NCBI GenBank assembly: GCA_965222215.1
Contig: OZ244931.1
Location: forward strand, 259,517 to 323,516
DNA: 64,000 nucleotides
Source: Alphaproteobacteria bacterium
GTDB taxonomy: Bacteria > Pseudomonadota > Alphaproteobacteria > UBA6615
Reading direction: 5' to 3'
This document shows positions 6,476 through 64,000 of this stretch, piece by piece; positions within the stretch are counted from its first letter, which is position 1, and each line of letters starts with the position of its first letter. The notes under the pieces were generated by a model. That model worked only from the letters and a program-made list of their open reading frames with translations. It ran no database searches and was not told the DNA's origin. The position numbers and the translations under genes are program-made.

Positions 6476-6988
6476 ATGTCCAACGTTGCACTGATCGCCG
6501 TGATATTGCGGCTCGTCGCGATCTGGCTATTCGTTTCGATTCTCGACACCATTTCCTGGAGCCATGTCAGTGTGGTTTCTCAGCCAAATGTAGCGGCTTG
6601 GGTTCTCCTGAAATTTCTGCTGGCGGCGTGGTTCTTCTTCTGGCCGCTGTCGGTTGTGCGAAGGCTGGTGCCGAAAGAGGCGCGTAGAACTGATCCGGTC
6701 GACGCTCTCGAGGTATGGACACCTGACATTTTGCAGGCGGTTTTGTTTTCAGCGGCTGGCGTTTGGATTCTTGTGACGACGATCACGTCCCAAGGACTCG
6801 TCGGTGCGATTCTGTATTTTGCGACCGGCGATTCAGGCGGCTTATACGTGACAGGCGCTTCGTTTTTGGTCGCTTTGATTGAGCTGGCGTTCGGGGTCTG
6901 GCTACTCTTCGGGGCGCGGGGCCTGTTCCATCTGGTCAGCGCCGCCCGCCGCGCCCGGCTCGACAACAAACTCTTCGAGGACGAATAA
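6476..6988 (+). CDS. Hypothetical 4-TM membrane protein (noticeably lower GC).
   Basis: Strong SD AAGGAG 8 nt before the ATG. Four hydrophobic helices. Local GC is clearly below the window average. Confidence 0.6.
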   Translation: MSNVALIAVILRLVAIWLFVSILDTISWSHVSVVSQPNVAAWVLLKFLLAAWFFFWPLSVVRRLVPKEARRTDPVDALEVWTPDILQAVLFSAAGVWILVTTITSQGLVGAILYFATGDSGGLYVTGASFLVALIELAFGVWLLFGARGLFHLVSAARRARLDNKLFEDE

Positions 6989-27062: not shown

Positions 27063-28232
27063 ATGTCGAACGAGAACGGACGCAGCGGGCCGCTGGTGGG
27101 CCTCAAGGTGGTGGAGCTGGCGGGCATCGGGCCGGGCCCGTTCGCCTGCATGCTGCTGGCGGATCTGGGCGCGGACGTGATCAAGATCGACCGGCCGGCC
27201 GACGCCGGCCTCGGCGTGCCGCGAGGCTACGAATACGATCTGGCGACCCGCTCGCGGCCCTCGGTGGCGGTCGATCTCAAGCATCCCGACGGCGTCGAGA
27301 CGGTCCTCAGGCTGGTCGAGAATGCCGACGTGCTGATCGAGCCGTTCCGCCCCGGCGTCACCGAAAAACTCGGCCTCGGACCGGACGACTGCATGGCGCG
27401 CAACCCGAAGCTGATCTACGCGCGCATGACCGGCTTCGGCGGCACGGGCCCGCTGGCGAAGGTCGCCGGGCACGACATCAACTACACGGCGCTGTCGGGC
27501 GCGCTGCACGCGATCGGCCCGGCGGAGAAGCCGGTGCCGCCGCTGAACCTGATCGGCGACTATGGCGGCGGCGCGCTTTATCTGGCGTTCGGCGTGATGG
27601 CGGCGATGTACGAGGTCCAGCGCTCGGGCCAGGGCCAGGTGGTCGACGCCGGGATGGTCGACGGCGCGGCGAGCCTGATGATCCCGGTGATCGGCCTGCA
27701 CGCGTCGGGCTATTTTACCGACCAGCGCGCCTCGAACATCCTCGACGGCGGCGCGCCTTTCTACGATGCCTACGAGTGCGCCGACGGAAAGTTCGTCTCC
27801 ATCGGATCCATCGAGAAGAAGTTCTACGCGATCCTGCTCGACAAGCTTGGCCTTGCCGACGAAGATCTGCCCGACCAGATGGACCGGGACCGCTGGCCCG
27901 AGCTGAAGGCGCGCTTCGCCGAAGTGATCAGGGGCAAGACCCGGGACGAGTGGATCGAGATCATGGAAGGCACGGACGTCTGCTTCGCGCCGGTCATGTC
28001 CATGAGCGAGGCCCACACCCACCCGCACAACGTGGCGCGGGAAAACTTTGTCGAGGTCGCGGGCGTCACCCAGCCGGCCCCGGCGCCGAAATTCTCACGC
28101 ACGCCGGGCAGGATCCACTCCCCGCCGAGCAATCCGGGCGAGCACACGGAGGCGGCGCTCGCCGACTGGGGCTTCGCGGCGGACGATATCGCCGCGCTGA
28201 AAGACAGCGGCGCCATCGGGCGGAAATCATAG
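27063..28232 (+). CDS. CoA-transferase family III (CaiB/BaiF/AMACR-like).
   Basis: Family signature (GPLVGLKVVELAGIGPGPFACMLLADLGADVIKIDRP). SD GGGGGGA. Confidence 0.85.
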   Translation: MSNENGRSGPLVGLKVVELAGIGPGPFACMLLADLGADVIKIDRPADAGLGVPRGYEYDLATRSRPSVAVDLKHPDGVETVLRLVENADVLIEPFRPGVTEKLGLGPDDCMARNPKLIYARMTGFGGTGPLAKVAGHDINYTALSGALHAIGPAEKPVPPLNLIGDYGGGALYLAFGVMAAMYEVQRSGQGQVVDAGMVDGAASLMIPVIGLHASGYFTDQRASNILDGGAPFYDAYECADGKFVSIGSIEKKFYAILLDKLGLADEDLPDQMDRDRWPELKARFAEVIRGKTRDEWIEIMEGTDVCFAPVMSMSEAHTHPHNVARENFVEVAGVTQPAPAPKFSRTPGRIHSPPSNPGEHTEAALADWGFAADDIAALKDSGAIGRKS

Positions 28233-28240
28233 AGCTCAGG

Positions 28241-28326
28241 CGTCATTGCGAGCCGTAGGCGAAGCAATCCAGAGCGGACCTGCCTCGGCCCTGGATTGCT
28301 TCGTCGCTACGCTCCTCGCAATGACA
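28241..28326. repeat. Family A repeat (copy A3).
   Basis: CGTCATTGCGAGCCGTAGGCGAAGCAATCCAGAGCGG...CTGGATTGCTTCGTCGCTACGCTCCTCGCAATGAC. Confidence 0.8.
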
Positions 28327-28345
28327 GGATGCAACAGGAACCACC

Positions 28346-29248
28346 ATGCCCACCCGGATCCCCTACAACCGCGAGCTGGAATTCGAGTACGGCCGCGTCG
28401 ATGAAATCACGCCGCTCGTCCGCCGGGTCATCGCCAACAACCCCAGCGCCTTCACCTTCCACGGCACCGGCACCTACATCGTCGGGCGCGGGCAGGTGGC
28501 GGTCGTCGACCCGGGACCGGACCTGGCCGAGCATGTGGACGCGCTGCTGGAGGCGGTGCGCGGCGAGACCGTCACCCACATCCTCGTCACCCACACCCAT
28601 ATCGACCACTCGCCCGCCGTGCCCGCGCTGCAGGCCGCGACCGGCGCGCCGACCTACGCTTGGGGCCCCCACGGCACCCGGCCTCAGGACGGGGCGAGCG
28701 AGGGCGGCGCGGACTATGATTTCGCGCCCGACCATGTCGTCGGGGACGGCGATGTCATCACCGGGCCGGGCTGGTCCGTCGAGGCGCTGCACACGCCGGG
28801 CCACTGCTCGAACCACCTGTGCTTCGCGCTGCACGAGGAGGACGCGCTTCTGTGCGGCGACCATGTGATGGGCTGGTCGACCAGCATCGTCTCGCCGCCT
28901 GACGGCGACATGGCGGCGTACATGGCCTCGCTCGACAAGGTCGCCCGCTTCGGCGCGGGCCGCTACTTCCCGACCCACGGCGCGCCCATCGACGCGCCCG
29001 AACCCTATGTGAAGGCGCTGATCGCCCACCGCCACGAGCGCGAGGCCCAGATCATGGCCGAACTCGCCGGCGGCCCGGCGACCATCGAAGAGATGATCCC
29101 GCGCATGTACGCCGACGTCGACCCGAAGCTCTACCCCGCCGCGGCGCGGAGCGTGCTCGCACATCTCATCCACATGGTCGAGACGGGCCGGGTGACGGCG
29201 GACGGGGACGCGGGCGAGGAGAGTGAGTGGCGGTTGGCCGGAAATTAG
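28346..29248 (+). CDS. MBL-fold metallo-hydrolase.
   Basis: HxHxDH motif (THTHIDHS). Confidence 0.85.
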   Translation: MPTRIPYNRELEFEYGRVDEITPLVRRVIANNPSAFTFHGTGTYIVGRGQVAVVDPGPDLAEHVDALLEAVRGETVTHILVTHTHIDHSPAVPALQAATGAPTYAWGPHGTRPQDGASEGGADYDFAPDHVVGDGDVITGPGWSVEALHTPGHCSNHLCFALHEEDALLCGDHVMGWSTSIVSPPDGDMAAYMASLDKVARFGAGRYFPTHGAPIDAPEPYVKALIAHRHEREAQIMAELAGGPATIEEMIPRMYADVDPKLYPAAARSVLAHLIHMVETGRVTADGDAGEESEWRLAGN

Positions 29249-29251
29249 CTC

Positions 29252-31096
29252 CTAGTTTGCAGGGCAATCTACCAAACCGGACTCGATATCTACAGATTCG
29301 GGGAGCGGCATCAAAGGATAAACGTCGGTCCAGCGCTCTAGAAACCCAGGCTGATTGCGTAAAGAGTATCTGGATTGTTTTGACGTAAAGTATTCCAGTC
29401 CCGTTCGGGCTTCGATCCACTCCAACGACACCCGCTTGGAGTCGAGCCATTCCGGAAATTTTTCATTTTTCAACTGAACTGGCTCGTTAGGGATTACGAG
29501 AGCAACCAACTCTGAAAAATGGTGGTTCGATGCGATGACGTAGAAGTGGCTCGGTATTGCGATACCGTCGGTTTCGCTCGTCCGGGATTTCAGCCGAGGG
29601 ATAATTTCGTTCTGGTCTCTTTGGCCATCGTTGTCATGGTCAAATATCAAGCCGAGATTGACGTAGAACGGCTCCCGCGTTTGTCCCCAATGCTTCACGG
29701 CTTCAAGAAGCCCGCGCCAGGCACCGCGGTCGAGAGTGCAAGCGCGCGGCGCGGTGTTGGAAAGAAGGTAATTGTTGATCTCGCCAGCTACCGTCCGGGC
29801 CGTGTGTGATGGCGGGGCCATGAGACCGGCCACGAAACTCGGATCGGAATAGTCACGGCAAGTTCCGGATTGTTCGGTTTCGAGGCGTGGATCGGCCCGA
29901 AAGGCTACACGTTGGGCTAGACGATATGGTGTTGCCGAAGGCATCCGATACTGGGTCCACATTGGAACCTTGAGGTCCGGATGGTAGTTCGACATGAAGT
30001 ACCGATTGCTGAGCAGAAACTCGGGCCGCTGCTGCCCCGGTGAAGTTCCGGGGTCGTGCCAACTCCACAAGGCCAGGCTTTCCTCGCTGTTGAGTTTCAG
30101 TTCGGTGCTCGCTCTTGCGACTTCTTGAGAACTGGTGTTCTCCCATCTGCAGTCCTCGTCTTGCCTTACCGGAGCCGGATCGTCGACGCTCTGAAAAGCA
30201 TCTATCGGGCGCGTGAGGATCGGAAGTCCAGAGGACTGCTCTTTCCCCTTTCGCTTCAGCCATTCCGACGCGCGTTTCTGACCTTCAGCGATTTCGGAGC
30301 TAGACATAAAGAACGCGACCTGATCGCGGTCTTCCCGGTGTTCCAGATCGTTGACGGTCGCGATCTCAAACCACTTGAAACCCTCGATACGGTCGATGGG
30401 CGTCCCGATGGCCCGATACAGTGTGCTGCGGGCATGGAGATTACCGAGATAGCCTTGCGCTTCTGCGTAGTCGCTTTCGGCCGCCGAGCGAATAAGTTGA
30501 AGAGCTTTGTCGAGGTCAAAAGGAACGACGTCTTCCGGCTTGTTCTCGCTCCAGAGGTAACGTTCCGCGATATAGACGAGTGCGGGCGCATATCCCTGCG
30601 CCGCAGCCTTTTCCGCCCATTCGAAAGCGGCCTTAAAATTCTCTTCGGGCGTTGGCTTGCCGGCACCAACTCTGGTCATTGTCGATTGAGCTGGAGCGAA
30701 CCCCAGTTCAGCAGCGCGTTGTATCCGCTCCCTGATTTCTTCCCATTCCAGAACACGATCAACGTTTTTTAGATCGTTTGAATATGAAAGAGGTGACGGA
30801 ATGCCGTGATAGGTCTTTGCAAGGAAGGCTTCAATGTAGTCGTCGTCTGTCTTGGAATTACCGAAGATAGGTCGAAAGGCCGGAATACCTAGAAGTGAGC
30901 GACTACGGCGTTCCCCGGCTTTCGCATTGACAATCGCAGATCTCACCGCCTCTTCGAAGAGATTTCGGGCCTCTGACTGATTTGCTTTCTGCCCTGTGGC
31001 TTCTTGGGTGGTGGCTAGTTGCGCCACAAAAAAGCTACACGCAACAAATAGCGTAAGGTGAAACGATCGAAGCCGTGCGAGTCCGGTCATTTTCAA
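29252..31096 (-). CDS. Secreted protein with Sel1-type repeats, fused to a C-terminal domain homologous to Serratia-type DNA/RNA non-specific endonucleases (Endonuclease_NS). The DRGH catalytic motif is not conserved. It sits on a lower-GC islet.
   Basis: Signal peptide. Sel1-like repeats (AAQGYAPALVYIAERY, ESDYAEAQGYLGNLH). The C-terminus has the nuclease-family landmarks PMWTQYRM (W-x-x-Y) and NNYLLSNTAPR...DRGAWRGLLE (compare NYLSNITPQ...QGAWARLE). The position expected for DRGH reads VAGLMAPPSH instead. GC is ~55% against ~67% for the flanks. Confidence 0.75.
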   Translation of the reverse strand: MKMTGLARLRSFHLTLFVACSFFVAQLATTQEATGQKANQSEARNLFEEAVRSAIVNAKAGERRSRSLLGIPAFRPIFGNSKTDDDYIEAFLAKTYHGIPSPLSYSNDLKNVDRVLEWEEIRERIQRAAELGFAPAQSTMTRVGAGKPTPEENFKAAFEWAEKAAAQGYAPALVYIAERYLWSENKPEDVVPFDLDKALQLIRSAAESDYAEAQGYLGNLHARSTLYRAIGTPIDRIEGFKWFEIATVNDLEHREDRDQVAFFMSSSEIAEGQKRASEWLKRKGKEQSSGLPILTRPIDAFQSVDDPAPVRQDEDCRWENTSSQEVARASTELKLNSEESLALWSWHDPGTSPGQQRPEFLLSNRYFMSNYHPDLKVPMWTQYRMPSATPYRLAQRVAFRADPRLETEQSGTCRDYSDPSFVAGLMAPPSHTARTVAGEINNYLLSNTAPRACTLDRGAWRGLLEAVKHWGQTREPFYVNLGLIFDHDNDGQRDQNEIIPRLKSRTSETDGIAIPSHFYVIASNHHFSELVALVIPNEPVQLKNEKFPEWLDSKRVSLEWIEARTGLEYFTSKQSRYSLRNQPGFLERWTDVYPLMPLPESVDIESGLVDCPAN

Positions 31097-31102
31097 GGCC
31101 TC

Positions 31103-31708
31103 CTACTCCGGCGTGATGTAATACCGCCCCCGCAAAAACCGTGACAGCGGCACCGGTCTTTCCGGGTCGGGCTTCGGGGGGTCGGCGACCCAGCGTTCGA
31201 ATTCGGCGAGTGCGATTCTCGTGATCCCGGCGATGTCCAGGTCGCGGGCAGCGTCCATCGGGAAGAACGCGGCGTCGAGGAGTTCGCCGTCGCCTTCGGT
31301 GATCTCGCCCATGGCATCGTCGGCCTCGGCCACCAGAAACCGCGCGTCGAAGCGGCGCGGGCGGCCGGGCGGGGTGATCGCCCGGAAGAAATAGTCGAGC
31401 CGTCCGAGCTCCGGGCGAAATCCGCCGGGCGCGTCGTCGTCGGCCTCGCCCAGCAGCAGGCCGGTTTCCTCGAAGACCTCGCGCACCGCCGCGGCGGCGA
31501 TGGCGCGGGCGCGGGTCGGGTTGGCGGCGCGCTCCAGGCGGGCCTGCACGTCCCGGCGAAGATTGCTCTCGGGCTTCAGCGCGCTGTCGGCCCGGTCCAC
31601 CCGGCCGCCGGGAAACACCCAGGCGTGGGGCATGAACACATGGTTCTTGTGGCGGCGGCCCATCAGCACCTCGACCGTGCCGCCGCGCCGCTTGCGCCAC
31701 AGCACCAT
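31103..31708 (-). CDS. NUDIX hydrolase (CoA pyrophosphatase-like).
   Basis: Nudix box GGRVDRADSALKPESNLRRDVQARLERAANPTRARAIAAAAVREVFEETG. The ORF-track frame is over-extended by ~188 codons. Confidence 0.7.
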   Translation of the reverse strand: MVLWRKRRGGTVEVLMGRRHKNHVFMPHAWVFPGGRVDRADSALKPESNLRRDVQARLERAANPTRARAIAAAAVREVFEETGLLLGEADDDAPGGFRPELGRLDYFFRAITPPGRPRRFDARFLVAEADDAMGEITEGDGELLDAAFFPMDAARDLDIAGITRIALAEFERWVADPPKPDPERPVPLSRFLRGRYYITPE

Positions 31709-31785
31709 CGTCGCCGCGTCGACGGGGCGCAGCGCGCGGTGTTCTTTCTTCTTCAGGCTCGGGTCGCTCTCGGCCACGCGTGTTC

Positions 31786-32439
31786 CTATTTCAGAGGCGA
31801 GAACGCGGTCGGCACCAGATACCGGTTCTTCTGGTCGACGACCCGGTGGCCATTCGCGGCCTGGTAGATTTTCCAGGCCGGGTCGGCCACGGCGGCCGCC
31901 TGGCGCTCCTCGCGCTGGCCCTGGCTGTCCCAGTACCAGAGGTGCACGACCTGGTTGATGGTGCCGGTGATCGAGGAGAAATAACCCAGGAGCTGCCAGC
32001 CGGCCCGCTCGATGACCGGCTTGGCGAGCGCCTTGGTCACCTCGACATAGTTCGGCACTTCGGCGTAGCGGATCGTGTAGGTGCGCTCGTCGACGAAGCC
32101 CTGTTCGCTGCCGTTGCCCATGAAGGCGAAGGGTTCCACCACGTCCGTCGCGGCGAGCAGGCGGTTTTCCTGCTCGACGATCCGCTCGACGTTGGCCTTG
32201 CGGTACGCGGTCCAGTCCTTGTCGTCGTAGAGCGAGGCCCGTACTTCCTGGCGAACCTTGGCGCTGTCCCACTTCCAGTAGTGGACGACCTTGTTCAGCC
32301 CGCCGGTCTCAACGGTGAAATAGCCGGCGAGGTCGAATCCGTGCTTCTGCTGCAGCGGGTAGCCTTCTTCCTCGACGCTCTTCAGGTAGGCGGGCAATTG
32401 CCCGGGCTTTACGGTGTATGTGCGTGCGTCGACGATCAT
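31786..32439 (-). CDS. NIPSNAP family protein (two NIPSNAP/Dabb domains).
   Basis: Strong SD GGGGGAGAG before ATG 32439. Duplicated NIPSNAP-like halves. Confidence 0.75.
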   Translation of the reverse strand: MIVDARTYTVKPGQLPAYLKSVEEEGYPLQQKHGFDLAGYFTVETGGLNKVVHYWKWDSAKVRQEVRASLYDDKDWTAYRKANVERIVEQENRLLAATDVVEPFAFMGNGSEQGFVDERTYTIRYAEVPNYVEVTKALAKPVIERAGWQLLGYFSSITGTINQVVHLWYWDSQGQREERQAAAVADPAWKIYQAANGHRVVDQKNRYLVPTAFSPLK

Positions 32440-32538
32440 GGCCTGACTCTCCCCCTCGGATATTGCGTTGCGGACGGTGCCGCCCGCGTGGGTGTATCGT
32501 GACACGGCGAACGGTCAACGAAAAGTCAGGCGGGTGAC

Positions 32539-33447
32539 ATGGTTGAGGCACGTATCCGGCATGTGGTCGAGACGGGGGCGATACTCGGTGAAAGCCCCGT
32601 GTGGTCGCCGGACGACGCGGTGCTGTGGTGGGTCGACATCAAGGCGCCCGCGCTCCACCGCTACAACCCGGCGGCCGATACCGACGAGTCCTGGCCGCTG
32701 CCGCAGGAGACGGGCTCGATTGCGTTGCGGAAGGGCGGCGGGCTGGTGGCCGCGCTGCGGGACGGGTTCGCGCGTGTCGATGTCGAGACCGGCCGGCTGG
32801 ACTGGATCGGCAACCCCGAGCCGGATCTGCCCGACAACCGCCTGAATGACGGCCGCACGGATCGCCAGGGTCGTTTCTGGGCGGGGTCGATGCACGACCC
32901 CGAGGGCCCGCCGCAGACCTATTTCGAGCGGGAACCGGTCGGCGCGTTCTACCGGCTCGATCCGGACGGGAGCATCCACCGGATGATCGACGGCGTTCTG
33001 GTGTCGAACGGCCTGTGCTGGTCGCCGGACGGCAAGACGATGTACGCGGCGGATTCGCCGACGCGGACGATCCGCGCCTGGGACTACGACCCGGCGACCG
33101 GAGACATCGCCGGCGAAAGGGTGTTCGCGACCATCCCGGAAGAACCCGGCCGGGGCACGCCGGATGGCGCCATCGTCGACGCCGACGGCGGGCTGTGGAC
33201 CGCCGAGTTCCGCGGCGGGCGGGTCACGCGCTTCACGCCGGACGGCAGGGAAGACCGCTCGGTGGCGCTGCCGGTCAGCCGCCCCACCTGCCCGATGTTC
33301 GGAGGGCCGGACTTGAAGACGCTCTACGTCACCTCCGCGAAGATCATGCTGAGCCCGGAGGAACTGGCGGCCGAGCCGCTCGCGGGGGCGCTGTTCGCGC
33401 TGGATGTCGGCGTCGCGGGGCCGCCGGAGACGCCGTTCCCGGGTTAA
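32539..33447 (+). CDS. SMP-30/gluconolactonase/LRE-like beta-propeller protein.
   Basis: Regucalcin family signatures (GESPVWSP, NRLNDGRTDRQGRFWAGSM, SNGLCWSPDGKTMY). Confidence 0.85.
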   Translation: MVEARIRHVVETGAILGESPVWSPDDAVLWWVDIKAPALHRYNPAADTDESWPLPQETGSIALRKGGGLVAALRDGFARVDVETGRLDWIGNPEPDLPDNRLNDGRTDRQGRFWAGSMHDPEGPPQTYFEREPVGAFYRLDPDGSIHRMIDGVLVSNGLCWSPDGKTMYAADSPTRTIRAWDYDPATGDIAGERVFATIPEEPGRGTPDGAIVDADGGLWTAEFRGGRVTRFTPDGREDRSVALPVSRPTCPMFGGPDLKTLYVTSAKIMLSPEELAAEPLAGALFALDVGVAGPPETPFPG

Positions 33448-60828: not shown

Positions 60829-63237
60829 ATGAAATTCACCCTCGGCTGGCTCAAGGATCATCTGGAGACGGAGGCGTCTCTCGACGAGATCGTCGAGACG
60901 CTCATTCAAATCGGCCTGGAGGTCGACACGGTCGACGACCCGGCGGCCAAGCTGTCGGCATTCCGCGTGGCCCATGTCGTCTCCGCCGAACAGCACCCCG
61001 ACGCCGACCGCCTGCAGGTCTGCATGGTCGACACCGGCGAGGAGACCGTCCAGGTCGTTTGCGGCGCGCCGAACGCGCGCGCGGGCATGAAGGGTGTGTT
61101 CGCGGCGTCGGGCACCTATGTGCCGGGCATCGACCTCGAACTGAAGAAGACGAAAATCCGCGGCGTCGAATCCAACGGCATGCTGGTCTCCGAGCGGGAG
61201 ATGGGCCTGTCCGACGAGCATGACGGCATCATCGACCTGCCCGAGGATTCGCCCGTCGGCACGCCGTTCGCCCGGGTGCTCGGCATCGACGACCCGGTCA
61301 TCGACATCGAACTCACGCCTAACCGGCCCGACTGCACGGGCGTGCGCGGCATCGCGCGCGATCTCGCCGCGGCGGGTCTGGGTACACTCAAGCCGTTCGA
61401 GGCCGCCGCGCCCGTCAACGGCAGCTACGACAGCCCGGTTACGTGGGCCATCGCGGATGACGGCAACGCCTGCCGGTACGTGGTCGGGCGCCATTTCCGC
61501 GGCGTCACCAACGGCCCGTCGCCGGACTGGGTTCAGGACCGCCTGCGCGCGGTCGGCCTGCGGCCGATCTCGGCGCTGGTCGACGTCACCAACTATGTCT
61601 CGCTGGATCTCGGCCGGCCGCTGCACGTGTTCGACGCGGGCAAGCTGAAGAACGACACGCTGACCATGCGCCATGCGCGTGACGGTGAGGACTTCAGGGC
61701 GCTGGTCGGCGACGACTACACGCTCGACGGCGAGATGACCGTCATCGGTGACGGCGACGTGGCCGAAGGCCTCGCCGGCGTCATGGGCGGGCTCGATTCG
61801 AGCTGCACCGAAGAGACCACCGAGGTGTTCCTCGAGGTCGCGCTGTTCGACCCGGTCTCCGTCGCCGCGACGGGCCGCAAGCTGCAGATCGATTCCGACG
61901 CGCGCTACCGGTTCGAGCGCGGGGTCGATCCCGAATCCGCCGAATGGGGCGCGGAGGTCGCGGCCCGCATGATCCTCGATTTCTGCGGCGGCGAGACCAG
62001 CAAGCCGGTGTCCGCCGGCGCGATGCCCGCGTGGCGGCGAGCGGTCGAGTTGCGGAGCGAACGGGTCGAGACCCTGGGCGGGGTCGATGTGCCCCACGCG
62101 CGCCAGGCCGAAATTCTCGAAGCCCTCGGCTTCGAGGTCACGCCGAGCGACGCGGGCGTATCCGCGTCCGTGCCGCCGTGGCGCCCGGACATCGGCGGCG
62201 AAGCTGACCTCGTCGAGGAAATCACTCGCATTCACGGCTTCGACCGCATTGCGCCGGTCTCGCTCGACCGAGACACCGCCCTGCCGTCCGTCGCGATCAC
62301 GCCGGGACAGCGCCGCACGAGCGCCGTCCGCCGCACGCTGGCCGCGCAGGGCCTTAGCGAGGCGGTCACCTGGTCCTTCATGGCCAGCACCCACGCCGAA
62401 CTGTTCGGCGTGCAGCCGGAAAGCCTGCGCCTCGCCAACCCGATCTCGTCCGAGCTCGACGCCATGCGGCCGTCGATCCTCGCCAACCTGCTGCAGGCCG
62501 CCGGCCGCAACGCCGACCGCGGTTTCGCGGATACTGGCCTGTTCGAACTCGGCCCGGCCTATGTCGACGCCACGCCCGACGGTCAGCTCCTGGTCGCGGC
62601 GGGCGTGCGCCACGGCAACGCCCATCCGGCCCACTGGTCCGGCAGTGCCCGCGCCGCCGACGCGCTCGACGCCAAGGCCGACGCCATGGCCGCGCTGGAA
62701 GCCGCTGGCGCACCGGTCGGCAACCTTCAGGTGAGCCGTGACGCGCCGGACTATTTCCACCCGGGCCGCTCAGCGGGGCTACGCCTCGGCAAGAACGTGC
62801 TCGCCTGGTTCGGGGAAATCCACCCGGCGGTGCTGCGCGGCCTCGACGTGCGCGGCCCGGCGGTGGGTTTCGAGGTGTTTCTCGACACGGTCCCGCCGGC
62901 CAAGAAATCGAAGAAGGGCGGCGGCGCGGCCCGCCCGCCGCTGCACCTGTCGGCCTTCCAGCCGGTCACCCGCGACTTCGCCTTCCTGGTCGACGCGGAC
63001 GTGCAGGCCGGCGACCTGCTCCGCGCCGCGCGCGGCGCCGACCGTGACCTCATCTCGGACGTGTCCCTGTTCGACGTCTACGAGGGCAGGAACATGGAGC
63101 CGGGCAAGAAGTCGCTGGCGATCCAGGCGACCCTTCAGCCGGTCGAGGCCACGCTCACCGACGCCGAAATCGACGAGATTTCAGCCAAGATCGTCGCGGC
63201 GGTCGAGAAGTCGACGGGCGGGACGCTGCGGGGTTAA
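60829..63237 (+). CDS. pheT: Phenylalanine--tRNA ligase beta subunit.
   Basis: tRNA-binding domain, B3/B4, B5 and FDX-ACB domains over 802 aa. SD GGAGG before the ATG. Confidence 0.95.
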   Translation: MKFTLGWLKDHLETEASLDEIVETLIQIGLEVDTVDDPAAKLSAFRVAHVVSAEQHPDADRLQVCMVDTGEETVQVVCGAPNARAGMKGVFAASGTYVPGIDLELKKTKIRGVESNGMLVSEREMGLSDEHDGIIDLPEDSPVGTPFARVLGIDDPVIDIELTPNRPDCTGVRGIARDLAAAGLGTLKPFEAAAPVNGSYDSPVTWAIADDGNACRYVVGRHFRGVTNGPSPDWVQDRLRAVGLRPISALVDVTNYVSLDLGRPLHVFDAGKLKNDTLTMRHARDGEDFRALVGDDYTLDGEMTVIGDGDVAEGLAGVMGGLDSSCTEETTEVFLEVALFDPVSVAATGRKLQIDSDARYRFERGVDPESAEWGAEVAARMILDFCGGETSKPVSAGAMPAWRRAVELRSERVETLGGVDVPHARQAEILEALGFEVTPSDAGVSASVPPWRPDIGGEADLVEEITRIHGFDRIAPVSLDRDTALPSVAITPGQRRTSAVRRTLAAQGLSEAVTWSFMASTHAELFGVQPESLRLANPISSELDAMRPSILANLLQAAGRNADRGFADTGLFELGPAYVDATPDGQLLVAAGVRHGNAHPAHWSGSARAADALDAKADAMAALEAAGAPVGNLQVSRDAPDYFHPGRSAGLRLGKNVLAWFGEIHPAVLRGLDVRGPAVGFEVFLDTVPPAKKSKKGGGAARPPLHLSAFQPVTRDFAFLVDADVQAGDLLRAARGADRDLISDVSLFDVYEGRNMEPGKKSLAIQATLQPVEATLTDAEIDEISAKIVAAVEKSTGGTLRG

Positions 63238-63503
63238 CCGGAAACTGTCCACGGACCGCTGTGGATAAGATGACGGTTTGGCGACATTGATGACAGAGCT
63301 TTGTGACAAACTGTGGATAGCGGCTCGAAAATACATAACCATATGATATTTAAATAGAAAAAGTATGATCCTGACTGTCGTATATTGTGGGTAATCTTAT
63401 GAAAACGATTCGTTGTTTCCCGAATATGACAGTTATCCCCATGTGTCACATTGTGTATGACAGCGAATATGACAGCCCCTGTTCCTGAATTGTTCCCCGC
63501 TCG
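63238..63503. promoter_or_regulatory. AT-rich (~40% GC) intergenic region with two DnaA-box-like 9-mers (TGTGGATAA 63260-63268, TGTGGATAG 63312-63320) and four copies of an ATGACAG motif.
   Basis: TGTGGATAA is the reverse complement of the TTATCCACA consensus. The motifs are direct repeats 52 bp apart. (A/T)ATGACAG occurs at ~63291, 63424, 63458 and 63470. Confidence 0.4.
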
Positions 63504-64000
63504 ATGACAGATCTTTCCCACATCCGCAATTTTTCGATCGTCGCCCACATCGACCATGGCAAGTCGACCCTGGCCGACCGGCTGATCCAGGAGACTGGCG
63601 GGCTGACCGAGCGGGAGATGTCCGAGCAGGTGCTCGACAATATGGAACTCGAGCGCGAGCGGGGGATCACCATCAAGGCGCAGACGGTGCGCCTGACCTA
63701 CACCGCGAAGGACGGCGAGACCTATCACCTGAACCTGATGGACACGCCGGGCCATGTGGACTTCTCCTATGAGGTCTCGCGCTCACTGGCCGCGTGCGAG
63801 GGCGCGCTGCTGGTGGTCGACGCCAGCCAGGGCGTGGAAGCCCAGACCCTCGCCAACGCCTATCTCGCCATCGACGCCGACCTCGAACTGGTCCCGGTCC
63901 TCAACAAGATCGACCTGCCGGCGGCCGAACCCGACCGGATCAAGCAGCAGATCGAGGATGTGATCGGGCTCGACGCGTCCGACGCGCTGGAGATTTCCGC
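63504..64000 (+). CDS. lepA: Elongation factor 4 (LepA), 3'-truncated by the window edge.
   Basis: N-terminus [22 protein letters not shown]... with G1-G4 GTPase motifs. Not in the ORF track because no stop codon falls within the window. Confidence 0.9.

Follow-up and report, generated by a model that had tools for sequence, protein, structure and literature searches.

A Sel1-repeat protein with a predicted pseudo-nuclease domain, encoded by an old accessory gene of marine Alphaproteobacteria

That enzyme domains may lose their activity and be retained for binding is well established in eukaryotes, and the nuclease-like (NUC) domain of the ENPPs is the textbook case for the Endonuclease_NS fold. 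To our knowledge, few such domains have been documented among exported bacterial proteins. A candidate is described here from contig OZ244931.1 of an alphaproteobacterial assembly (GCA_965222215.1); the window analysed is the whole stretch of 64,000 nucleotides at positions 259,517 to 323,516 of the forward strand. It contains a single gene of low GC content whose product of 612 amino acids (aa) joins an N-terminal region of Sel1-like repeats to a C-terminal Endonuclease_NS domain in which the catalytic residues have been replaced.

Several described systems resemble parts of this protein. In the ENPPs, the NUC domain is catalytically dead, binds Ca2+ through an EF-hand-like motif and stabilises the phosphodiesterase (PDE) domain through its C-terminal region (PMC8808174). 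The NUC domains of ENPP1-3 and of snake-venom PDE are the best match to the window domain both by sequence (E ~1e-8) and by fold (E ~1e-13), and both are dead Endonuclease_NS folds with a D-x-D/N-x-D-G-x-x-D loop in the same place. The likeness would also extend to an extracellular, disulfide-bonded, binding or stabilising module, properties that are predicted for the window domain. The context differs, as the ENPP domain is joined to SMB and PDE domains, the latter being its target in cis, whereas the window protein has a Sel1 solenoid instead. Homologous domains, with signal peptide, landmark motifs and Cys pairs, are found in secreted nucleases such as those of Serratia marcescens, Anabaena (NucA) and a close clade of bacterial proteins of ~310-340 aa (P0004-P0012), the last of which also has the Ca2+-type loop and a C-terminal tail like the window protein; all of them keep the DRGH His and the Mg2+ Asn that the window protein has lost, and are without the 300-aa N-terminal Sel1 region that it adds. 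Mitochondrial EndoG and EXOG belong to the same branch of the family and give second-tier matches, but they are active eukaryotic organellar enzymes with an intact DRGH motif and without Sel1 repeats. The N-terminal half matches Sel1-like repeat (SLR) proteins of E. coli (EsiB/c5321, 4BWR), Legionella and Helicobacter with E values of 1e-12 to 1e-6; these are exported alpha-solenoids for protein-protein recognition, made of repeats only and without a nuclease fold, and the window protein has about four such repeats. In concept, but neither in fold nor in cellular context, the protein also resembles RecC, for which one account describes an inactivated PD-(D/E)xK nuclease domain kept as a scaffold (PMC1185551). 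Dead Endonuclease_NS domains were already known from ENPP1-3; what is new here is the Sel1 fusion, the fixed remodelling of four residues and the evidence of selection. In the literature searched, no bacterial Endonuclease_NS protein was found described as dead or as fused to Sel1 repeats.

Loss of the catalytic site and its conservation

Residues are numbered on the 612-aa protein; the Pfam and solved-structure searches used the 614-codon open reading frame (ORF), in which numbers are higher by two. The former catalytic site lies in two segments, given with the replaced residues in Serratia nuclease numbering.

29816..29836, minus strand: FVAGLMA, aa 419-425, the former DRGH motif (D86 replaced by V420, R87 by A421, H89 by L423; G88 kept)
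29705..29758, minus strand: NTAPRACTLDRGAWRGLL, aa 445-462, the former metal-site segment (N110 kept; Q114 replaced by R449, N119 by D454, E127 by L462)

Compared with its relatives, the window protein reads FVAGLMAPP for FDRGH(L/M)VP, SNTAPR for SNMAPQ and LDRGAWRGLLE for FNRGxWxxLE. A HMMER search with aa 298-612 against 1.84 billion representatives gave 1322 matches at E <= 1e-3, and the 150 best were aligned. In this alignment His stands at the catalytic position in 132 of the 150 sequences and Asn at the Mg2+-ligand position in 139; the window protein and P0003 alone have Leu at the first of these positions and Asp at the second. The column of Q114 holds Gln in 140 sequences and Arg in three, and that of E127 holds Glu in 140 and Leu in the window protein alone, while the Asp and Arg columns of DRGH hold Asp in 125 and Arg or Gln in 128, respectively. 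The Arg conserved by the family at position 393 is also gone, with Gln, Ser or Ile instead. Alignment to Serratia nuclease by hhalign (probability 96.9%, E 1.4e-10) pairs D86, R87, G88, H89, Q114, N119 and E127 with V420, A421, G422, L423, R449, D454 and L462; the numbering of the Serratia sequence used reproduces the published R57, H89, N119 and E127. The score of the Endonuclease_NS family is roughly halved, from 104-179 bits in active relatives to 59-73 bits in the dead orthologues. Other landmarks are retained, namely W-x-x-Y, SN-x-x-P, GAW and PSHFY, together with N110, W123 and the FRxDPRL segment.

A preliminary description, made from the DNA alone, had noted these nuclease landmarks and the readings VAGLMAPP and NTAPR at the catalytic positions, and had proposed a pseudo-nuclease or, alternatively, a rewired active site. 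The motif readings were reproduced and the first proposal was borne out, as both alignments put Leu at the His, Asp at the Asn, Val and Ala at the Asp and Arg, and Arg at Q114, and no catalytic His/Asn pair is found at the active site. The second did not hold. Nothing catalytic replaces the lost residues, and a comparison of the three orthologues described below with active relatives revealed no His newly conserved in the dead clade, which makes a rewired site unlikely. Relocated catalytic His candidates were rejected one by one: H430 is absent in P0003, H345 is absent in P0152, and H467, H485 and H515 are also present in active relatives. The alignments support the prediction that the C-terminal domain is a pseudo-nuclease, without the ability to cleave phosphodiester bonds.

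The best match in the HMMER search was P0003 (617 aa, 44% identity), which has the same architecture; it was followed by P0004 (341 aa), without Sel1 repeats, and then by many proteins of ~310-340 aa with signal peptides. A third intact orthologue, P0152 (619 aa), was recovered by a word-index search seeded with P0003. The three intact orthologues measure 612-619 aa and share 40-52% pairwise protein identity, and all of them read FV(A/P)GLMA and N(T/A)APRACTLD(R/K)GxWxG, so that the loss of DRGH noted in the window protein is common to P0003 and P0152. Exactly four positions conserved in the family carry a replacement that is invariant in this clade: Asp to V420, His to L423, Gln to R449 and Asn to D454. 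At position 462, which corresponds to E127, two of the three alleles have Glu or Asp.

The conservation of the replaced site is not that expected of a decaying domain. Among the three alleles 31% of the protein is invariant, and the most conserved 15-mer is the former metal site itself (aa 447-461, APRACTLDRGAWRGL, 73% invariant), followed by a block of the C-terminal tail (aa 592-606, 67% invariant). Identity in the codon alignment is 0.55-0.66, 0.58-0.69 and 0.31-0.34 at positions 1, 2 and 3, respectively (chance 0.25); non-synonymous divergence (dN) is 0.42-0.64, and synonymous divergence (dS) is 3.7 or unbounded, that is, saturated. Neutral decay is ruled out, because three frames of 1.84-1.86 kb stay open after complete synonymous turnover, with conservation at positions 1 and 2. 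The catalytic loss is a conserved state under purifying selection. As to its origin, the nearest relative without Sel1 repeats, P0004 (E 6e-53), keeps DQGH, N119 and E127, already has Arg at Q114 and has the same C-terminal tail, features which indicate that the dead clade arose within active secreted nucleases. Among the relatives examined, the Sel1 fusion is confined to the dead clade.

This clade is extremely small. Searches of ~15 billion proteins, JGI metagenomes, plasmids and viral contigs gave three intact copies and one pseudogene. In 5.8 billion protein clusters, the word-index search with the window protein and P0003 as queries returned only the queries, P0152 and one Sel1-protease fusion. 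The latter, P0002, is a 623-aa Sel1-repeat protein joined to a trypsin-like serine protease domain, another putatively exported Sel1-plus-hydrolase fusion. A scan of JGI metagenomes with the alignment of the window protein (P0001) and P0003 found generic Sel1 proteins only, tblastn against plasmids found active nucleases only, at <=32% identity, and a scan of viral contigs found no relatives. PADLOC gave zero matches for all three orthologues, and PHROGs only a generic nuclease family and one family of unknown function that matches the Sel1 region. No active nuclease paralogue is present within the 64-kb window.

Architecture of the protein and its likeness to ENPP domains

The further features of the protein are the following.

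31013..31090, minus strand: N-terminal leader MTGLARLRSFHLTLFVACSFFVAQLA, with a basic n-region, a hydrophobic core of ~15 residues and small residues, a putative Sec signal peptide or anchor
30239..30745, minus strand: Sel1-like repeat region, aa 116-284, ~four helix pairs (from Pfam, solved Sel1 proteins and the model)
29255..30163, minus strand: nuclease-like domain (Endonuclease_NS, beta-beta-alpha-metal finger), aa 310-612 (from Pfam, AlphaFold, Foldseek and hhalign)
29615..29644, minus strand: EF-hand-like loop FDHDNDGQRD, aa 483-492, which aligns with FDYNYDGHFD of ENPP3 and has no counterpart in Serratia nuclease, where the alignment has a gap
29264..29317, minus strand: C-terminal tail PLMPLPESVDIESGLVDC, aa 592-609, ending in a Cys that pairs positionally with C314

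From the protein sequence, Pfam reports only Endonuclease_NS (PF01223, E 8e-16, 58.8 bits, cut-off 23) and, marginally below its cut-off, Sel1 (PF08238, 30.2 bits against 30.7); no PDE domain is present. The Sel1 repeats claimed by the preliminary description have further support, as both orthologues pass the Pfam cut-off (P0003 with 35.7 bits, P0152 with 32.3) and solved Sel1 structures match this half of the protein, 4bwr (E. coli c5321/EsiB) at 1.7e-12 and 8sxq, 6onw, 6deh and 6ok3 at 1e-7 to 1e-6. An AlphaFold model, for which 52 sequences were aligned, has a mean predicted local distance difference test (pLDDT) of 78.6 and a predicted template modelling score (pTM) of 0.61. In this model aa 116-284 form paired helices of an all-helical solenoid, at low to medium confidence (pLDDT 35-90), and aa 310-570 are mostly above a pLDDT of 90, the finger consisting of strands 419-423 and 446-450 and helix 451-471.

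Four Cys are positionally conserved, in the pairs 314/609 and 411/451 (predicted disulfides), and hydrophobic leaders comparable to that of the window protein are found in all orthologues and in active relatives. Leader, Cys pairs and EF-hand-like Ca2+ loop make the sequence consistent with export. The C-terminal tail is common only to the closest relatives P0003, P0152 and P0004. In all three alleles the domain is acidic, with an isoelectric point (pI) of 5.0-5.8 (~5.3 in the window protein) and a net charge of -6 to -16.

With respect to kinship, a Foldseek search of the PDB placed the nuclease-like domains of ENPP1/2/3 and venom PDE first (E ~1e-13, ~300 columns) and EndoG and EXOG next (~228 columns), and by sequence the C-terminal half ranked ENPP3, ENPP1 and ENPP2 (~1e-8) ahead of EndoG (2e-6), EXOG (5e-5) and Anabaena NucA (0.01). 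The matches to ENPPs are restricted to their C-terminal NUC region. A specific kinship with ENPPs was nevertheless rejected, as for the active relative P0005 the best match is EXOG (1.6e-21), ENPP3 and EndoG come next with nearly equal values (~4e-17), and Serratia nuclease is far behind; the ENPP-first ranking of the dead proteins arises mainly because their catalytic motif no longer scores. On this sequence evidence the bacterial clade is placed in the EXOG/EndoG/ENPP-NUC branch, with an ENPP-type Ca2+ loop. The catalytic losses in ENPPs and in the window protein are independent, since the nearest relatives of the latter are active bacterial nucleases, and the replacing residues differ (HGFLYPP in ENPP3, VAGLMAPP in the window protein); the likeness is one of mode of working, not of descent.

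A side observation concerns the active clade P0004-P0012, which has an FDxDxDGxRD loop as in the ENPP NUC domain and matches N- and C-terminal extensions of ENPPs that Serratia nuclease lacks. Among prokaryotic proteins, these may be the closest relatives of the NUC domain.

The locus, its composition and its history

The gene, its translation signal and its neighbours are arranged as follows.

29252..31090, minus strand: coding sequence of the Sel1 plus dead-nuclease protein, 612 aa and stop codon, an exact match to the public protein P0001
31099..31104, minus strand: AGGAGG, a perfect Shine-Dalgarno sequence that lies 8 nt upstream of the ATG and shares bases with the NUDIX stop codon (31103-31105)
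28346..29248, plus strand: MBL-fold hydrolase, flanking core gene, convergent and kept in all relatives
31103..31777, minus strand: NUDIX hydrolase, flanking core gene, immediately upstream on the same strand
31786-32439, minus strand: NIPSNAP gene, preceding NUDIX

The preliminary description had placed a gene of 614 aa, as a low-GC islet of horizontal origin, between a convergent MBL and a tandem NUDIX gene. The flanks are as described, and the ORF exists (29252..31096, minus strand, 614 codons if read from TTG), but translation almost certainly begins at the ATG at 31090, which gives 612 aa, because AGGAGG lies 8 nt upstream, the public call is of 612 aa, and TTG, two codons upstream, would leave only a 2-nt spacer to the Shine-Dalgarno sequence. 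At this junction the minus strand reads CCGGAG TAG GAGG CCTTGAAA ATG, where TAG is the NUDIX stop. The overlap of the Shine-Dalgarno sequence with this stop codon implies that the gene is probably co-transcribed with NIPSNAP-NUDIX. A scan of positions 28200-33000 gave no sigma-70-like promoter within or before the gene, and terminator-like matches around it are at chance level only. Downstream, its stop codon lies 3 bp from the convergent MBL stop; the low-GC stretch is exactly one gene without spare DNA, with spacers of 3 bp and 12 bp left.

The low GC itself is confirmed. The gene fills the stretch of lowest GC in the 64-kb window; as a whole it has a GC of 0.54 and a GC at third codon positions (GC3) of 0.58, against 0.81-0.92 in neighbouring genes (MBL 0.92, CoA-transferase 0.89 and a DUF2339 gene 0.875, these three on one side). 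In 400-bp segments, GC is 0.52-0.58 within the gene and 0.65-0.73 on either side; in 1-kb segments over 64 kb the mean is 0.664 (sd 0.031) and the minimum, 0.549, falls in the gene, a drop of ~3.7 sd, which is real and far exceeds noise.

Its history was read from 80 related loci, fetched with the MBL gene as anchor. The order CoA-transferase, MBL, gap, NUDIX, NIPSNAP, SGL is kept in a clade of metagenome-assembled genomes of uncultured marine Alphaproteobacteria, and in most of these relatives the gap between MBL and NUDIX measures 11-230 bp and lacks the Sel1-nuclease gene. This is also the case in the closest relative, L002, whose flanking proteins are 91% identical (66-bp gap), and in L009, the sister of a carrier (15-bp gap). 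At least four lineages carry the gene in this slot: the window; L114, which carries P0152 (L114:10001-11860) on a contig of 28 kb that contains the complete neighbourhood; L082, which with L083 carries P0003 (L082:135-1988), with the C-terminus of NUDIX upstream and that of the convergent MBL downstream; and L005. The copy of L005, whose sister is L009, is a pseudogene, in which an N-terminal (~28-30% identity) and a C-terminal fragment (~45-47%) flank a transposase gene of the IS1595 family of insertion sequences (IS) and the central ~290 codons are gone. The junctions of the intact copies are alike: 8-20 nt separate the NUDIX stop from the start codon, and 3-5 nt separate the stop codons of the gene and of MBL. 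A profile search for cryptic remnants in the 'empty' MBL-NUDIX spacers found none except in L005. In a tree of five flanking proteins made by neighbour joining, both sub-clades contain carriers, and the sister of each carrier is a non-carrier.

Between the window and L114 the flanking proteins are 80% identical and the Sel1-nuclease proteins 41%; the proportions of non-synonymous (pN) and synonymous (pS) differences are 0.10 and 0.48 for MBL and 0.42 and 0.81 for the Sel1-nuclease gene. The three alleles have a GC3 of 0.58, 0.59 and 0.55, similar in both domains, against 0.83-0.86 in the flanking genes of L114. There is no tRNA and no mobility gene in the window, and flanking repeats are limited to short ones at chance level. 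Horizontal acquisition is accordingly upheld in part: the gene is accessory, atypical in GC and absent from L002 and most relatives, but it sits in the same slot in at least four lineages (although not in all close relatives), with saturated dS and no mobility signatures. A recent foreign islet was rejected on these grounds, together with the 40-52% identity of the orthologues. It is an old accessory gene at a fixed slot, either lost at least five or six times or exchanged within the clade via the conserved flanks, and its low GC is a stable long-term state of the locus, not the mark of a fresh arrival. We infer that the locus escapes the process that drives core genes to a GC3 of ~0.88, for example recombination-linked biased gene conversion, presumably because homologous partners would be lacking in most genomes. 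P0004, the nearest active relative, is found on a contig of ~0.50-0.53 GC, so the gene may ultimately derive from a donor of lower GC. P0004 (L084:237-1262) and P0152 (L114) come from the same run, SRR25758456, so possible donor and carrier lineages share one sample.

Across the clade, the MBL-NUDIX slot is a site of variable cargo. It holds a 173-aa ORF of GC 0.45 with weak DUF4145/MtlR-like matches (L003:10889-11489), a 95-aa GIY-YIG ORF between two copies of the hairpin GTCATGGCCGGACTTGTTCCGGCC (L007:1209-1715), an S15 X-Pro dipeptidyl-peptidase-like gene (L008:9761-12443) and, in L005, the IS1595 transposase (L005:11718-12671). One copy of the L007 hairpin is also found in the 66-bp spacer of L002 (L002:3203-3268), and the window has none. 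Elsewhere in the window, two other low-GC ORFs are without a Pfam match, at 63234-63755 on the minus strand (GC 0.517, GC3 0.50) and at 6476-6988 on the plus strand (GC 0.567, GC3 0.67); they may be further accessory genes, or not genes at all.

Proposed role and alternatives

On balance, we lean towards an exported, non-catalytic binding or scaffold pseudoenzyme of the cell envelope. The N-terminal leader would take the protein out of the cytoplasm, where the Sel1 solenoid would offer a surface for protein-protein interaction. The C-terminal domain keeps the nuclease fold, the Cys pairs and the Ca2+-type loop and would be unable to cleave phosphodiester bonds, its general-base His, Mg2+ Asn and supporting Asp, Arg and Gln having given way to Leu, Asp, Val, Ala or Pro, and Arg. 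A salt bridge between Arg449 and Asp454 would fill and neutralise the old Mg2+-water pocket. The remodelled surface and the conserved tail at the C-terminus could then jointly act as a second interface, a binding platform for a partner. As for descent, a clade of active secreted nucleases of ~320 aa, with P0004 as nearest member, would have gained the Sel1 region and lost catalysis once; afterwards the gene would have persisted as a dispensable, quickly diverging accessory gene in the NUDIX-MBL slot of a marine alphaproteobacterial clade, often lost.

Several points weigh against this proposal. The conserved surface is defined by only three sequences, and the conservation of the former active site could be structural, reflecting packing of the finger core. 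Export is read from the appearance of the sequence, the Sel1 part is modelled at low to medium confidence, and the arrangement of the domains is not fixed by the model (pTM 0.61). Asp454, with the Glu or Asp at position 462 in two alleles, could hold a divalent ion and so allow metal-mediated phosphate binding. The neighbours in the locus give no functional clue, NIPSNAP, NUDIX and MBL being present with or without the gene, and its frequent loss and the IS-disrupted copy of L005 speak for a dispensable function.

Of the alternatives, that of a DNA, RNA or nucleotide binder that does not cleave is, in our judgement, unlikely. Such a protein might hold phosphate through a metal at Asp454, with the Sel1 region tethering it to an envelope partner, and might serve scavenging, biofilm extracellular DNA or uptake. 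The model keeps the fold and what appears to be the substrate-groove architecture, N110, W123 and the FRxDPRL segment are kept, the former active site is the most conserved block, and Asp454 and the acidic residue at 462 could coordinate a cation. Protein binding is ranked above generic nucleic-acid binding because all three alleles encode an acidic domain (pI 5.0-5.8, net charge -6 to -16) and because the DRGH Arg and Arg393 are lost; furthermore, Arg449 probably sits in the metal site and no DNA-uptake or nucleotide-transport genes adjoin. A still-active nuclease or phosphodiesterase with rewired catalytic residues could likewise appeal to the intact fold, the high conservation of the site region and a metal at Asp454, yet it is hardly credible: four to six catalytic or supporting residues were replaced together by Val, Ala or Pro, Leu and Arg, the clade has acquired no conserved His or other residue that could plausibly act as general base, and the Pfam score is far below that of active relatives (59-73 against 104-179 bits).

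Two further explanations start from the history of the gene. An envelope decoy or immunity protein in biotic conflict, which would sequester a foreign protein such as a competitor toxin, a nuclease-binding factor or a phage component, would fit a non-synonymous evolution ~4 times that of the flanks (pN 0.32-0.43 against 0.10 for MBL), a patchy, repeatedly lost and IS-hit gene and a slot that carries other variable cargo. It would also fit the fact that periplasmic Sel1-like repeat proteins act as immunity proteins against phospholipases of type VI secretion systems (T6SS). We consider it distinctly improbable, as no cognate toxin, T6SS or defence gene adjoins, PADLOC gives no match and viral contigs hold no relatives, the fast evolution is equally compatible with weak constraint, and the best-conserved part is the former active site rather than a hypervariable surface. 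A recent islet from a low-GC donor, or a functionless relic, is very improbable. Its composition (GC 0.54 against 0.66, GC3 0.58 against ~0.88), its absence from the closest relative L002, the ~0.50-0.53 GC contig of P0004 and the one pseudogene would agree with it; against it stand the same slot, orientation and junctions in four lineages of both sub-clades, the three intact 1.84-1.86-kb frames with conservation at positions 1 and 2, and the lack of integrase, tRNA and flanking repeats in the window. Moreover, 40-52% identity and saturated synonymous sites combined with a GC3 of 0.55-0.59 throughout indicate long evolution without amelioration.

The binding proposal can be taken a step further, tentatively. 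The remodelled site (V420, L423, R449 and D454) and the tail would form a selected new pocket for a specific partner (a receptor, a decoy or a stabilising subunit), as a prokaryotic counterpart of the ENPP NUC domain, and the GC3 of ~0.57 would show an escape from the maintenance of core GC; the combination is possible, though on present evidence we would rather doubt it. If it were true, the constancy of this GC3 despite saturated synonymous turnover would mean that some process from which an accessory locus is exempt, for instance recombination-linked biased gene conversion, upholds core GC. An accessory gene that has kept a GC3 of ~0.57 over a very long time in genomes of GC3 ~0.88 is a natural experiment of the kind by which mutation bias can be told apart from recombination-driven GC enrichment. 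The protein also offers a clean, independently evolved bacterial pseudoenzyme, in which reversion mutants could reveal the ligand of the pocket. Its extreme rarity and narrow distribution limit its general importance.

Annotation pipelines are likely to mislabel the protein as 'DNA/RNA non-specific endonuclease', and in the wider family it is not alone in having lost the catalytic His. About 10% of the 150 closest relatives have lost this residue independently, including ENPP-like long proteins and several members of ~270-440 aa. In six of the latter (P0051, P0108, P0151, P0143, P0087 and P0086) the His is replaced by Arg, Gln or Asn, and the Asn and Glu are kept. Judging from these alignments, pseudo-nucleases may be recurrent in this nuclease family.

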